The position numbers and the translations under genes are program-made. The notes below the pieces were generated by a model. The model made no database searches, was not told where the DNA came from, and was given only the letters and a program-made list of their open reading frames with translations. DNA of 64,000 nt from Patescibacteria group bacterium (GTDB taxonomy: Bacteria; Patescibacteriota; Minisyncoccia; Minisyncoccales; RBG-13-36-15). Numbering within the stretch: position 1 is the stretch's first letter; each line of letters opens with the position of its first letter. The stretch is from NCBI GenBank assembly GCA_018609195.1, contig JAHCSE010000004.1:8474-72473 (forward strand), written 5' to 3'. This document shows positions 46,057-49,536 of the stretch, piece after piece.

Positions 46057-48963
46057 ATGAAAAATAATTACATAAAAATTAGGGGAGCCAAAGTTCATAA
46101 CCTAAAGAATATTGATATTGATATTCCCAAAAATAAAATGGTGGTAATTACCGGGATTTCAGGATCTGGAAAGAGTTCTTTAGCTTTTGATACTTTGTAT
46201 GCAGAAGGCCAGCGCCGATATGTGGAAAGTTTATCTGCTTATGCCCGTCAATTTTTAGGTGTGATGGACAAACCGGATGTCGAAAGGATTGAGGGAATTT
46301 CTCCTGCTATTTCCATTGATCAGAGAAAGGCAGCCCATAACCCAAGATCGACAGTGGGTACCATTACTGAAATTTACGACTATTTAAGGTTATTATTTGC
46401 CAAAATTGGGAAGCCTCATTGCCCAAAATGTAAAAAGCCAGTTTCCAAACAGACCATTGATCAGATTACAGAGCAAATTTTAAAATTACCTAAAAAAACA
46501 GAGATTACAATTTTGGGACCAGTCATTCGGGGCAGAAAGGGAGAGCATCGGGGAATATTAGAAGAAATTCAAAGAGGAGGATTTGTGAGGGTGAGGATTG
46601 ATGGAATTTTATATCGGATTGAGGAAGCGCTAGAGCGAATTTTAGAGCGCAAGAAAAAACACAATATTGAAGTAGTGGTGGATCGAGTGGTGATTGAAAA
46701 AAATCTGGAACGGGCTCGTCTCGTTGATTCGATGGAGACTGCCCTAAAATTAGGAAAAGGCATAGCGATTGTTGGAGTTGTTGGAAATGTCCAATCAGCC
46801 TCCAACCCTGTTTTAAATATTCATCATCAACAGAGGAAACTAACCAACAAAGGAAAGCGATCAAACATCTCAGACATTATATTCAGCGAGCATTTTACCT
46901 GTGAAGAATGTCGAATTTCTCTACCTGAGTTAGAGCCGAGACTCTTTTCTTTTAATTCCCCCTACGGAGCTTGTCCGGCCTGTCAAGGATTGGGGGAGAA
47001 ATTGGAAGTTGACCCAAAATTAGTCATTCCCAATAAAAACTTAACCATAACTGAAGGAGCAATTCGTCCTTGGATGAGAGCCTCTCATAAATTAGGCCGC
47101 CAGAGTTATTTCTGGTGGCAGTTATCTGATTTATCTGAGAGAAGAAATTTTTCCTTATCCATCCCAGTTAAAAATTTATCCAAAAAGATTACCGATGTTA
47201 TTTTATATGGCGATGAGGAGTTTGAAGGAGTTGTTCCTTCCCTGGAAAGAAGATATCGCGAGACTGAATCAGAATATACCAGAGAAGAAATTGAGCAATA
47301 CATGATTGAAAAAAAGTGTGAAGCTTGCCAAGGAAAGAGATTAAAGCCCGAAGTGCTATCTGTAACCATAACTGGGAAATCAATTGATGATTTAGTCTCA
47401 ATAAGTGTAGATAGATTAAAGGAGTTTTTTGAAAAATTAATAAAAAATCGAGGAAATCTGTCCTCGAGTTTTAAAATTGCTGCCCCTATTATCAAAGAAC
47501 TTATCAATCGTTTGCAATTTTTGATTGATGTCGGTTTAAATTACTTAACTATTGATCGAAAGGCAGGGACTTTAGCGGGTGGTGAGGAGCAAAGAATAAG
47601 GTTAGCTACTCAAATTGGCTCAAAACTGACAGGGGTATTATACATTTTGGATGAACCCTCAGTTGGCCTCCATGCTAGAGATCAAGGAAGATTAATTGAA
47701 ACTTTAAAAAAATTGAGAGATTTGGGAAACACCATTGTGGTGGTAGAACATGATCCCCAGACAATTAAAGCTGCAGATTGGATAATCGATATAGGGCCTG
47801 GGGCAGGGGAACAAGGAGGAAAAATAACTTTTGAGGGTACACCAAAAGCACTTCTCAAGGCTCACACTTTAACTGGTGAGTATCTGGCAGGTAAAAAGAA
47901 AGTGGAAATCAAAGCTTCCCAGTCATCTGTCTCTAGTCAGACAAGTACAAAAAGCTCAGATCGGAAGGAGCTTATTATCAAGGGGGCAACAGAGCACAAT
48001 TTAAAAAATATCGATGTGAAAATTCCTTTAGGTAAATTTGTTTGTATTACCGGAGTTTCGGGATCTGGAAAAAGTTCTTTAATGAATGATATTTTAGCCC
48101 GGGCCCTTCTTCAAAAATTTTACAATAGCAAAGAAGGACCAGGAAGACACAAAGATATTTTAGGTTGGGAAAATTTAAACAAGATAGTTTTGGTTGACCA
48201 ATCACCAATCGGCAGAACTCCGAGATCTAATCCAGCTACCTACACAGGAGCTTTTTCTTACATGAGAGATCTTTTTTCTAAAACCAGGGAAGCCAGAATT
48301 AGGGGGTATCTGCCAGGTAGGTTTTCTTTTAATGTCAAAGGAGGAAGATGTGAGGCCTGTGAAGGTCAAGGAGTGAAAAAAATTGAGATGTATTTTTTAC
48401 CAGATGTCTATGTTGAATGTAAAGAATGCAAGGGGAAAAGATTTAATAAAGAAACTCTATCCATTGAATATAAAGGAAAAAATATTTCAGAGGTTTTAAC
48501 AATGACAGTTAAGGAAGCTCTTGATTTTTTCAAAGCAATTCCTGGTCTTTTCCAAAAATTAAAAACTTTAGATGAAGTTGGTTTAGGTTACGTTCAGCTT
48601 GGTCAACCTGCTCCTTCTCTTTCTGGAGGAGAGGCTCAGAGGGTAAAATTATCCACTGAGCTTTCCAGAAAGGCAACTGGAAAAACTTTATATATTTTAG
48701 ATGAGCCCACCACTGGTTTGCATTTTGACGATATTAAAAAACTTTTAAGGGTTTTAAGAGAATTAGTAGACCGAGGAAATACAGTTTTGATAATTGAACA
48801 CAATTTAGATGTAATCAAGAATACTGATTGGATAGTTGATCTGGGGCCAGAAGGCGGTGAGGAAGGAGGATACATTGTTACCGAAGGTGAACCTTTTGCG
48901 ATAATCAAAAATAAAAAAAGTTATACTGGAAAATATCTCAAACCAGTGTTGAGAAAAACTTGA
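46057..48963 (+). CDS. uvrA: excinuclease ABC subunit A
   Basis: 968 aa. Two ABC modules (GISGSGKSS, GVSGSGKSS; LSGGE signatures) and zinc-finger Cys clusters. Confidence 0.95.
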   Translation: MKNNYIKIRGAKVHNLKNIDIDIPKNKMVVITGISGSGKSSLAFDTLYAEGQRRYVESLSAYARQFLGVMDKPDVERIEGISPAISIDQRKAAHNPRSTVGTITEIYDYLRLLFAKIGKPHCPKCKKPVSKQTIDQITEQILKLPKKTEITILGPVIRGRKGEHRGILEEIQRGGFVRVRIDGILYRIEEALERILERKKKHNIEVVVDRVVIEKNLERARLVDSMETALKLGKGIAIVGVVGNVQSASNPVLNIHHQQRKLTNKGKRSNISDIIFSEHFTCEECRISLPELEPRLFSFNSPYGACPACQGLGEKLEVDPKLVIPNKNLTITEGAIRPWMRASHKLGRQSYFWWQLSDLSERRNFSLSIPVKNLSKKITDVILYGDEEFEGVVPSLERRYRETESEYTREEIEQYMIEKKCEACQGKRLKPEVLSVTITGKSIDDLVSISVDRLKEFFEKLIKNRGNLSSSFKIAAPIIKELINRLQFLIDVGLNYLTIDRKAGTLAGGEEQRIRLATQIGSKLTGVLYILDEPSVGLHARDQGRLIETLKKLRDLGNTIVVVEHDPQTIKAADWIIDIGPGAGEQGGKITFEGTPKALLKAHTLTGEYLAGKKKVEIKASQSSVSSQTSTKSSDRKELIIKGATEHNLKNIDVKIPLGKFVCITGVSGSGKSSLMNDILARALLQKFYNSKEGPGRHKDILGWENLNKIVLVDQSPIGRTPRSNPATYTGAFSYMRDLFSKTREARIRGYLPGRFSFNVKGGRCEACEGQGVKKIEMYFLPDVYVECKECKGKRFNKETLSIEYKGKNISEVLTMTVKEALDFFKAIPGLFQKLKTLDEVGLGYVQLGQPAPSLSGGEAQRVKLSTELSRKATGKTLYILDEPTTGLHFDDIKKLLRVLRELVDRGNTVLIIEHNLDVIKNTDWIVDLGPEGGEEGGYIVTEGEPFAIIKNKKSYTGKYLKPVLRKT

Positions 48964-48987
48964 CAAAGTTTTTGCAGAAGCTAATAT
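48960..48987 (+). promoter_or_regulatory. groESL promoter
   Basis: TTGACA (48960-48965, overlapping the uvrA stop), 16 nt, TAATAT (48982-48987). Confidence 0.6.
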
Positions 48988-48998
48988 GAAAAATAGAA

Positions 48999-49025
48999 TT
49001 AGCACTCAAACGCTTTGTTTGCTAA
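48999..49025 (+). promoter_or_regulatory. CIRCE-like operator (HrcA site)
   Basis: TTAGCACTC-N9-GTTTGCTAA versus consensus TTAGCACTC-N9-GAGTGCTAA. The left half is perfect and the right half matches 7/9. Confidence 0.7.
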
Positions 49026-49035
49026 AATGGCGATT

Positions 49036-49326
49036 ATGAAAATTAAACCTCTCTCTGATCATATTTTAATTGAGCCAATGAAACGGGAGGAGAAAACTAA
49101 GACGGGGATTTTGTTACCAGAAACTGCTGAAAAAGATAAGCCAGAACAAGGGAAGGTGGTGGCTGTGGGACCAGGGAGGAAGACTTCCTCAGGTAAAGTT
49201 ATTCCTTTAGAAGTAAAAGAAGGGGATATTGTTTTATTTACAAAATATGGACCAAATGAAATAAAAATTGATGATAAGGAATATTTAGTTGCTAAAGAAG
49301 AAGATATATTAGCGATCCTCGAATAG
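49036..49326 (+). CDS. groES: co-chaperonin GroES
   Basis: MKIKPLSDHILIEP...GKVVAVGPG.... The track start at 49015 lies inside the CIRCE site. ATG 49027 and ATG 49036 are both possible. Confidence 0.9.
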   Translation: MKIKPLSDHILIEPMKREEKTKTGILLPETAEKDKPEQGKVVAVGPGRKTSSGKVIPLEVKEGDIVLFTKYGPNEIKIDDKEYLVAKEEDILAILE

Positions 49327-49327
49327 C

Positions 49328-49530
49328 GTCCCACATCGGAAGGGGGTCGGGGTGAAAAGCCCTTTAGGTTTCCCCGTGTAGGAAAACAGGCTTTCAGTCG
49401 AGCGAAGCGAAGACTGAAAGCGTTAGAAACCGTGGGTTTCTAAAGAGCGAGTCCGAACCGAACACATAAACCGTTATGTGTTCGGGCCAACCGTAAGGCT
49501 GGAGGAGGGCGAGCGACTAACCTATGTAAT
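49328..49530 (-). repeat. structured repeat family, copy D (antisense, fills the groES-groEL spacer)
   Basis: The reverse complement aligns block-for-block with copy B: GTCGCTCGCCCTC, CCAGCCTTACGGTTGG, CGAACACATAA...TTATGTGTTCG, TTAGAAACC-cac-GGTTTCTAA, CTTTCAGTC...GACTGAAAG, CCTGTTTTCCTACACGG, CCCCGACCCCC. Confidence 0.85.
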
Positions 49531-49536
49531 ATCACT

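Follow-up and report, generated by a model that had tools for sequence, protein, structure and literature searches.

The chaperonin operon of a Patescibacteria group bacterium, located in the 64,000-nt stretch of contig JAHCSE010000004.1 analysed here (the window), raises the question of what occupies the long interval between groES and groEL, and what this sequence may do to the expression of the two genes. The spacer covers positions 49327–49536 and its coordinates confirm the length of 210 nt reported in the first-pass annotation. It stands out by composition, with 51% GC in a 200-nt window over the spacer compared with 30–42% in windows over the flanking sequence, and it is almost filled by one copy (copy D) of a structured repeat found in many Patescibacteria lineages. 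We consider it fairly probable that copy D is a co-transcribed interspersed structured repeat, for which translational uncoupling of the two genes is certain in kind, and a role in mRNA processing is plausible. The locus is base-identical in two independent long assemblies, and the element junctions are therefore real rather than an assembly artefact. Two short-read (Logan) contigs begin or break at 49422, within the hairpin H3 described below, as expected for a repeat sequence. The flanking genes, both supported by the list of open reading frames (ORFs) and by Pfam, are:

49036–49326, plus strand: groES (Cpn10, 96 amino acids, PF00166), with stop codon TAG at 49324–49326
49537–51153, plus strand: groEL (Cpn60, 538 amino acids, PF00118)

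The repeat between groES and groEL and its family

The reverse complement of the spacer aligns (blastn) to window positions 39434–39597 with 76% identity over 185 nt (E = 6e-31), and to positions 10224–10300 with 85% identity (E = 7e-18). A covariance model of the family core (R1) identifies exactly four copies in the window; another 19 kb of flanking sequence contains none:

10196–10334, minus strand: copy A, core 10222–10334, covariance model score 78.9 bits
39434–39602, minus strand: copy B, core 39503–39602, 87.9 bits
45845–46050, minus strand: copy C, core 45898–46050, 60 bits
49329–49517, plus strand: copy D, which occupies about 190 nt of the 210-nt spacer and places the G-rich strand of the structured Patescibacteria element on the mRNA; R1 match at 49331–49448 (plus strand), 70.6 bits, E = 2e-18

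When aligned, the four window copies form a chain of hairpins with compensatory differences between copies. Copy D begins 3–5 nt past the groES stop codon, and its 3' modules (49449–49520) are 86% identical to copy B. The placement of copy D at 49328–49530 in the first-pass annotation was correct in that the spacer is filled by a copy of the element running opposite to copies A–C, while the right end is at about 49517, which puts the earlier boundary about 10 nt too far. In mRNA orientation, the modules of copy D and the sequence that follows are:

49338–49346, plus strand: purine tract GGAAGGGGG, a mirror image of the Ha 5' strand and a candidate for the third strand of a triple helix
49348–49376, plus strand: hairpin Ha (CGGGG...CCCCG), preceded by the invariant block GGGGUCGGG; compensatory changes
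49376–49389, plus strand: invariant single-stranded block GUGUAGGAAAACAG; columns invariant in a 70-sequence alignment except for one N position
49390–49421, plus strand: variable hairpin Hv (GCTTTCAGTC...GACTGAAAGC); predicted fold, closing pairs covary
49423–49443, plus strand: hairpin H3 (UUAGAAACC-GUG-GGUUUCUAA), the most conserved module, where short-read assemblies break
49459–49502, plus strand: peripheral hairpins H2 (49459–49484) and H1 (49487–49502), common only to copy B and a few Nealsonbacteria copies
49503–49517, plus strand: terminal block GAGGAGGGCGAGCGAC, invariant in four orthologous spacers; on the opposite strand, the family starts with GTCGC
49518–49536, plus strand: residual AU-rich spacer TAACCTATGTAATATCACT, 19 nt, unpaired in the predicted fold

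The predicted fold of copy D has a free energy of -76.6 kcal/mol (z-score -3.7), and both strands fold far better than shuffled sequence (z-scores -4.3 and -3.7). Compensatory changes support the predicted pairing of Ha, Hv, and H3. In the periphery, H1 and H2 carry compensatory G-C to A-T changes between copies B and D, and are 83% identical to the copy at locus L091. The groEL leader is unpaired in the minimum-free-energy fold, and the last 7 nt of TAACCTATGTAATATCACT are the same as the whole spacer of relatives with short spacers (TACCACT, CCACT). No promoter-like site is present within the spacer on either strand, nor on the minus strand anywhere in 48700–49700. The spacer also lacks a convincing intrinsic terminator, the only candidate being a weak 5-bp stem at 49349–49363 that is no better than those in shuffled sequence. 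A terminator or an internal groEL promoter in the spacer was rejected, since neither was found on either strand. With no promoter and no credible terminator in copy D, the element can be expected to be carried on the groESL mRNA.

The distribution of the family was assessed with a 24-base pattern from the conserved end of the element, searched against species-representative genomes. At least 114 stretches matched, all of them from Patescibacteria, and several genomes had more than one. The lineages named in the titles include Nealsonbacteria, Staskawiczbacteria, Yonathbacteria, Niyogibacteria, Vogelbacteria, Azambacteria, Zambryskibacteria, and Nomurabacteria, among others. The same pattern had no match in viral contigs, and a phage origin was rejected on this ground. 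The core spans about 95 nt (150–220 nt with the periphery) and contains blocks of 9–14 nt that are invariant across many Patescibacteria lineages. On the G-rich strand, the order is purine tract, GUC, Ha (GGGRRR...YYYCCC), GUGNAGGAAAACAG, Hv, CG, H3 (UUAGAAACC-GNG-GGUUUCUAA), and RGAGC. Among 70 aligned copies, the blocks GGGGUCGGG and CCGUG-AGGAAAACAG are invariant, each of the five variable pairs of Ha displays 8–29 compensatory double changes, and the outer two pairs of H3 covary from UA to CG in 7–10 sequences. The closing pairs of Hv covary as well (columns 65/100 are G:C in 24 sequences, C:G in 14, and T:A in 10). The GTCGC start on the opposite strand recurs across the family, and the other end forms a variable tail. 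Few copies share the peripheral modules, for instance H1 and H2 (present in copies B and D), and the family is therefore regarded as mosaic.

No known RNA family accounts for these properties in the searches made. With Rfam 15, only two tRNAs reach the gathering score in the window, and permissive searches (E up to 5–10) with copies D and B and locus L105 returned hairpin noise and nothing meaningful. Literature searches for Patescibacteria or candidate phyla radiation (CPR) structured RNAs, miniature inverted-repeat transposable elements (MITEs), and RNA motifs turned up nothing relevant. Three structural alternatives were considered and discarded. Many copies have flanks that resemble a T arm, which could indicate a tRNA intron or a tRNA-like molecule, but the only tRNA genes that ARAGORN reports nearby are separate and intact, and lie on the opposite strand; the flanks duplicate parts of these genes in inverted or direct orientation, and contain neither D arm nor anticodon arm. 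A universal closing helix does not apply, as it is present in only about one third of the copies, with a mean best-helix score of 12.6 versus 11.3 for shuffled flanks. Pairing of the 3' extension GAUGUGGGA with the invariant UCCUACAC was dismissed after manual inspection, where support was inconsistent across copies.

The first-pass annotation described copy D as antisense, a label that was arbitrary and derived from copies A–C, since the strand of copy D on the mRNA is the usual sense strand of the family. ORFs were called around 121 copies, which come from more than 100 Patescibacteria genomes. Of the copies between co-directional genes, 50 have the G-rich strand as sense and 11 the other strand; for the neighbouring gene on the core side alone, the G-rich strand was sense in 73 cases versus 28. 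About one quarter of the copies have the opposite orientation. The conserved end is typically located 12–45 nt past a stop codon, or follows a tRNA gene. Wobble pairs in Ha are biased in the same direction, with G-U on the G-rich strand outnumbering the alternative (G-U on the other strand, A-C on this one) by 8 to 1. Folding is more favourable for the G-rich strand in 103 of 115 copies.

Copies D and B have the majority orientation of the family, and copies A and C the minority orientation. Copy B starts 14 nt past the stop codon of a minus-strand SBP_bac_5 gene (39616–41634), and is oriented to this gene as copy D is to groES. Copy A places its C-rich strand in the 5' untranslated region (UTR) of ligA, between a promoter at 10156–10184 and the start codon at 10366; the ligA gene is supported by Pfam domains, and a terminator is found upstream. 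Similarly, the C-rich strand of copy C is in the 5' UTR of uvrA, between a conserved promoter at 45806–45834 and the start at 46057. At this site the element is absent in the relatives L005 and L006, and present in L116. A leader specific to DNA repair, as the association with ligA and uvrA could imply, was ruled out, since copies in the same orientation elsewhere precede genes for a glycosyltransferase, mfd, fusA, dnaX, and others. Copy C also has a small hairpin (CTGTTCACACACAG) nested in the Ha loop (45995–46020) and an extra hairpin in the variable region, and a similar isolated fragment is found at 33261–33301, downstream of a terminator-like hairpin.

The tract adjacent to Ha is a mirror image of the purine strand of the hairpin, and is thereby complementary to the other Ha strand in a parallel register. 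In the 70-sequence alignment, this register is 88.9% complementary, compared with 76.2% in shuffled controls, and every slid register reaches at most 65%. Double changes occupy 61 cells versus 23.5 +/- 4.1 in shuffles, a value reached in 0 of 500 shuffles. An independent count over 118 distinct copies gives A with T, or G with C, at positions 4–6 in 304 of 354 cases. No antiparallel pairing accounts for this three-way covariation, which selection for base triples does. The statistical signal is strong, and suggests an intramolecular triple helix, which would be of the purine-motif type on the G-rich strand or of the pyrimidine-motif type on the C-rich strand, in RNA or in single-stranded DNA.

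Empty sites, relatives, and dispersal

The locus was compared in 81 relatives with a GroES 77–89% identical to that of the window, and an identifiable groEL start downstream. The spacer measures 1–13 nt in 28 of these, and 20–211 nt in the remaining 53. A length of 210 nt is thus not the departure from the usual few tens of nucleotides that the first-pass annotation assumed. Equally long spacers unrelated to the element are present in the relatives L006 (200 nt) and L187–L195 (169 nt), which removes the argument from exceptional length; the identity of copy D stands. The spacer of L006 was considered as a diverged copy and rejected, as it has no covariance-model match and only a 61-nt module in common with another locus. 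The long spacers hold several unrelated repeats, including AT-rich TTCTAAATT palindromes, ACGAAT repeats, and other GC-rich elements. The groES-groEL junction is a sink for repeats, and a long spacer is common in the clade.

The AT-rich palindromes are also represented in the window, where a second repeat family occurs at 26064–26192 and 60550–60682 as long imperfect palindromes of TTCTAAATT / TTCGAAAT units. One of them fills the rpoB-rpoC spacer and overlaps the end of rpoB, and the other fills the spacer between LemA and peptidase M48 genes. Similar repeats occupy the groES-groEL spacers of many relatives.

The claim that the family inserts into operons is supported by empty sites. The closest relative, L005 (82.7% nucleotide identity over groES and 900 nt of groEL), has a spacer of 1 nt with the same promoter and operator; the spacer of L007 is 6 nt, and other empty sites are 2–7 nt. 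In three more distant relatives, L160, L162, and L126 (75–76% nucleotide identity where measurable), the same family is present in the same orientation, and with the same 3' junction as in the window, i.e., GAGGGCGAGCGAYTAA, a short variable stretch, TAYCACT, and ATG. The short spacers TACCACT and CCACT are identical to the final bases of the long, element-bearing spacers. The copy in L160 is intact (86.5 bits), that in L162 is decayed (22.5 bits), and L126 retains a 60-nt relic of both element ends, corresponding to an internal deletion. The pattern can be explained either by one old insertion followed by decay and clean losses, or by repeated insertions at one site. The copy at this site is non-essential to groESL, being kept in some lineages, decayed in others, and absent from most relatives. 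In the comparison of the window with L160, identity is 86% for the element core and 75% for the groES and groEL coding sequence (1188 nt); intact copies are therefore constrained, or homogenised against other copies in the genome.

Copies at unlinked loci of one and the same genome are 76–96% identical over 100–210 nt with unrelated flanks, and the family is therefore spreading or has recently spread. Several other genomes have 3–5 loci each, and the present one has four copies in about 83 kb. Conserved terminal inverted repeats are lacking; there are only copy-specific complementary stretches in the flanks of about one third of the copies. As a test for a fixed-length target duplication, the possible CCACT repeat that flanks the insert in L160 and L162 is ambiguous, as CCAC is also part of the element in that subfamily. 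Local duplications are evident at three other loci. In L023 (1036–1383), the element resides within a direct duplication of about 112 nt that includes the fusA promoter and the first 22 codons, with the upstream partial fusA frame running into the element, and a 10-nt inverted copy of the junction following it. In L105 (3983–4412) and L087 (2590–2841), the inserts are downstream of tRNA genes and bracketed by inverted copies of the tRNA 3' end (T arm and acceptor), and the flanks are partial inverted and direct copies of the neighbouring tRNA 3' end. Such duplications are ill-suited to a cut-and-paste MITE, and suggest template switching or another duplicative mechanism at structured sequence. 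In the inspected parts of the 8-kb flanks around about 115 loci, there was no sign of a transposase; one serine recombinase and one restriction-modification block were noted.

Two further arrangements were observed. A second bracketed insert in L105 is a different element, and one bracket at this locus reads ...CCGCACCA, where the gene itself precedes AAAAAC. In L021 (1839–5574), a 3.7-kb block beside a tRNA-Gln gene is enclosed by two near-identical copies, whose tRNA-like flanks are identical. It carries genes for a LexA-like/DNA methyltransferase fusion and a putative restriction enzyme, and has the appearance of an integrated island.

Possible roles and comparison with known repeats

According to the reading of copy D as a co-transcribed repeat, the element would be transcribed within the groESL mRNA, presumably from the promoter controlled by the CIRCE-like operator (controlling inverted repeat of chaperone expression) upstream of groES. 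The RNA is predicted to fold into Ha, perhaps capped by a purine third strand, followed by the A-rich single-stranded block, Hv, H3, and the two peripheral hairpins. Translational coupling is expected at few-base junctions in bacterial operons. Copy D would replace an ancestral junction of 1–7 nt where translation of groEL would couple to termination of groES, and with the long structured spacer in place, groEL would initiate independently on the 19-nt unpaired AU-rich stretch. More speculatively, the structure past the groES stop codon and the single-stranded block could together act as a determinant of stability or processing, such that the two cistrons meet different RNA fates. The element probably has an intercistronic role of this kind, as judged from its position after stop codons and tRNA genes, the invariant A-rich block, and the hairpins on both sides.

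Several points weigh against this interpretation. Co-transcription, translational uncoupling, and the processing or stabilising role are all deduced from sequence. Copies A and C are reversed inside 5' UTRs, and a strictly strand-specific RNA function is therefore not universal. The orientation bias could stem from a replication-linked process at the DNA level instead of an RNA function, and the local duplications in L023, L087, and L105 point to DNA-level events. The patchy distribution at the groES-groEL site requires many clean losses or repeated insertion, and a neighbour-joining tree from 1.2 kb fits both. Purine-motif triple helices are, to our knowledge, poorly documented for RNA. Finally, about 83 kb around the locus (the window and about 10 kb past each end) yielded no hrcA.

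A more far-reaching proposal, which we regard as tentative, is that the element is an undescribed, phylum-wide RNA module that would serve as an intercistronic or 3'-end punctuation cassette after ORFs and tRNAs, with a triplex-capped Ha, a block recognised by a conserved nuclease or RNA-binding protein, and a spread by an unusual mechanism that leaves local direct or inverted target duplications. If such a module benefits the host, a possibility that overlaps with the co-transcribed repeat and that we hold with similar reserve, an endonuclease would cut the invariant A-rich GUGNAGGAAAACAG, the triplex-capped Ha would block 3' exonucleases, and Hv and H3 would protect the downstream 5' end, giving groES and groEL separate half-lives. 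The invariance of unpaired blocks across very divergent genomes agrees with this proposal, as do the higher identity of the orthologous copy (86%) than of the chaperonin coding sequence (75%), the sense-strand bias and location just past stop codons and tRNA genes, and the three-way covariation expected for a tertiary contact. It is difficult to reconcile with the decayed (L162), internally deleted (L126), and, in most relatives, absent copy at the groES-groEL site, or with the quarter of copies in opposite orientation. Moreover, the mosaic periphery and the intragenomic copies of up to 96% identity have the look of a spreading repeat, and both the cleavage and the nuclease are hypothetical. 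A function at the DNA level, where the hairpins and the purine/pyrimidine mirror repeat would act in single-stranded or supercoiled DNA, either as an H-DNA-like triplex or for recognition by a mobilising enzyme, as for RAYT on REP, would make the presence in the mRNA incidental. An intramolecular triplex classically requires a mirror repeat together with an inverted repeat in the sequence, and both are present. GCGAAGC units, which form a very stable DNA mini-hairpin, are frequent, and the local direct and inverted duplications at insertion sites, the recent intragenomic dispersal, and an orientation bias that could follow the lagging-strand template all fit. We nevertheless find this unlikely, as G-U wobbles are tolerated on one strand only, which speaks for selection at the RNA level, and copies A and C are oriented opposite to copy D among plus-strand genes of the window. 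Conserved terminal inverted repeats are also missing, with copy-specific flanking helices in about one third of the copies, and the partly inspected 8-kb flanks revealed no associated transposase.

The remaining two explanations concern the groESL locus more specifically. The minus (C-rich) strand of copy D could be produced as an independent small RNA, convergent with groES and pairing with the groESL mRNA, with a pyrimidine-motif triplex at its end. The C-rich strand does have a purine-pyrimidine-pyrimidine layout at the would-be 3' end, which is the classical layout for an intramolecular pyrimidine-motif triplex, and copies A and C, just downstream of promoters that read in the C-rich orientation, are certainly transcribed in this way. 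An antisense RNA from copy D is nonetheless very improbable, considering that 48700–49700 has no promoter-like site on the minus strand, that no conserved promoter is found upstream of the GTCGC end across the family, and that the orientation bias and the wobble pairs favour the other strand. A regulator acting specifically on groEL, for instance an RNA thermometer or a riboswitch that adjusts GroEL synthesis, would be suited to a heat-shock operon, and the element is directly upstream of groEL and strongly structured (-76.6 kcal/mol, z-score -3.7). The same core adjoins dozens of other, unrelated genes as well as tRNAs, the predicted fold leaves the groEL start accessible, and most relatives lack the element at this site, all of which make a dedicated regulator hardly credible.

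Among known repeats, REP/BIME and REPIN sequences are extragenic hairpin repeats, often located past stop codons in operons, that are co-transcribed, mosaic, and persist vertically over long times, and that affect the stability of upstream mRNA. The present family has the same hallmarks, i.e., multiple intergenic copies, similarity confined to the repeat, and hairpins with compensatory changes, and it resembles the REP/BIME of enterobacteria and the REPINs of Pseudomonas in its modular, multi-copy extragenic hairpins placed after stop codons in operons. Unlike REP units, which are 20–40 nt long and specific to a species or genus, it has a core of about 95 nt with blocks of 9–14 nt invariant across lineages, and triplex-type covariation; in addition, no RAYT-like partner was identified in the partly inspected flanks. 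The BOX/RUP/SPRITE repeats of Streptococcus pneumoniae, ERIC/IRU, and the Correia elements of Neisseria are modular, folded sequences of 100–200 nt that occur within operons and are co-transcribed, and some of them are processed by RNase III or alter downstream expression. Size, strong predicted folds, a modular build (in the style of boxA-B-C), and location between operon genes are shared with these elements. They are in contrast confined to a genus, and resemble MITEs in their terminal inverted repeats and target duplications of fixed length; in the present family, conserved terminal repeats are absent and the distribution is phylum-wide. We conclude that the element belongs with repeats of the REP/BIME, BOX, ERIC, and Correia type, and is distinguished from them by its phylum scale, an invariant internal block in place of terminal repeats, triplex-type covariation, and unusual insertion signatures.

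For the putative triple helix, the closest parallels are H-DNA mirror repeats and the intramolecular triplexes of ENE/MALAT1, SAM-II, and preQ1-II, in which a hairpin with a purine-rich strand and an adjacent strand covary in base-triple register. In contrast to ENE or H-type pseudoknots, the order here would be third strand, 3-nt linker, and then hairpin, and on the strand favoured by the gene context the third strand would be purine-rich, a motif poorly documented for RNA.

Patescibacteria genomes are very small (the contig of the window is about 750 kb), and several families of repeats of 100–200 nt inside core operons such as groES-groEL and rpoB-rpoC are unexpected cargo. If the element acts on RNA, it would represent a general device for operon expression in a major, mostly uncultured branch of bacteria, and a new natural example of a triple helix. 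If purely selfish, it would be a mobile repeat that persists at the scale of a phylum. In practical terms, the element breaks short-read assemblies at predictable points, and the covariance model R1 can be used for its annotation.

The groESL promoter and operator, and other features of the window

The three genes uvrA, groES, and groEL are consecutive on the plus strand at 46057–51153, as established from the ORF list and Pfam. The region upstream of groES contains:

46057–48963, plus strand: uvrA (ORF list; Pfam UvrA domains on identical contigs), with its stop codon TGA (48961–48963) inside the -35 hexamer of groESL
48960–48987, plus strand: sigma-70-type promoter TTGACA-16-TAATAT (TTGACA 48960–48965, TAATAT 48982–48987), scoring 10/12
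48999–49025, plus strand: CIRCE-like inverted repeat TTAGCACTC-N9-GTTTGCTAA, downstream of the -10 box and ahead of the groES start

This promoter, already recognised in the first-pass annotation, is real; it is the sole strong promoter-like site on both strands of 48700–49700, and matching TTGACA and -10 boxes are found at the equivalent position upstream of groES in L005, L006, L007, L116, and L123, where the promoter-operator arrangement is also the same. The operator begins 11 nt past the -10 box and ends 10 nt ahead of the ATG at 49036, which places it in a groES 5' UTR of about 40 nt if transcription starts a few bases past the -10 box. Its left arm TTAGCACTC is identical to the canonical consensus (9/9), and the right arm GTTTGCTAA agrees with the canonical GAGTGCTAA in 7/9 positions. 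A relaxed CIRCE pattern has a single match in the window, against a chance expectation of 0.06, and among 122 loci the site is restricted to the region upstream of groES. About half of the 81 relatives have the strict form, and more have a looser form. Across the clade, the left arm is conserved, and only TGCTAA is kept in the right arm, with the inner three bases varying. The description of the operator as classical is consequently too strong; the site itself is real, and conserved in relatives. From the conservation of the left arm, TGCTAA, and position across the clade, the CIRCE-type site upstream of groES is probably functional, and is presumably bound by HrcA.

As in the groESL and dnaK operons under CIRCE/HrcA control, TTAGCACTC-N9-...TGCTAA lies between a sigma-70-type promoter and groES, with the same position, an identical left arm, and conservation in relatives. 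The locus differs from them in having GTTTGCTAA in place of GAGTGCTAA, of which only TGCTAA is kept clade-wide, and in that hrcA was not located within the 83 kb mentioned above. Genes called in the left flank and on to about 13 kb of the window, between 39.6 kb and the right window end, and in the right flank contain no HrcA Pfam domain. A tblastn search with an approximate Bacillus subtilis HrcA sequence gave no match in the window or the collected loci, and is the only check that covers about 13–39 kb. Literature searches on HrcA in Patescibacteria or CPR turned up nothing relevant. For groESL itself the lesson is modest, as its promoter and operator are of a conventional kind, and operons split in this way are common in the clade.

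The spacing of the operator to the -10 box is kept in relatives even where other repeats are inserted between operator and groES. Such inserts, about 90 nt long, lie between the CIRCE-like site and groES in L116 (1950–2035, minus strand), L123 (660–755), L124 (1–30), and L006 (9417–9509). Those of L116, L123, and L124 are rich in GAGCGAAG, and the one in L006 belongs to the ATTAGTG/CACTAAT type. Repeats thus land in the 5' UTR as well.

Gene calls for groES give 96 or 99 amino acids, both with PF00166. The ATG at 49036 is most likely the start, rather than the alternatives at 49015 and 49027, as judged from relatives that begin MKIKPL or MNIKPL. GroEL is 77–87% identical to GroEL of Nealsonbacteria and other Patescibacteria, and assigns the window to Candidatus Nealsonbacteria.

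Elsewhere in the window, the region 39145–39375 on the plus strand combines a strong promoter with an upstream TG (TTGACA-17-TATATT, 11/12) and, downstream of it, about 200 nt of rod-like structured RNA (-85.7 kcal/mol, z-score -4.8), with a strong intrinsic terminator at 39350–39373. This region is located between a tRNA gene and copy B, and is a candidate small RNA, perhaps 6S- or SRP-like, without an Rfam match. Inverted repeats at 14040–14152 and 22536–22647 (82 nt 71% complementary, and 36 nt 83% complementary) bracket large, repeat-rich ORFs at 14.5–22.5 kb. This block contains collagen-like GPQ repeats (15454–15581), a 153-nt tandem repeat (16868–17626), and Pro/Glu-rich repeats (19024–19360). 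Two clusters resembling type IV pilus or competence genes are found at 1106–9662 and 52402–59712, with PilB, PilC, PilM, prepilin peptidase, and several N_methyl pilins. Paralogous segments in these clusters are 2132–2368 versus 53404–53640, and 56114–56413 versus 57070–57369.

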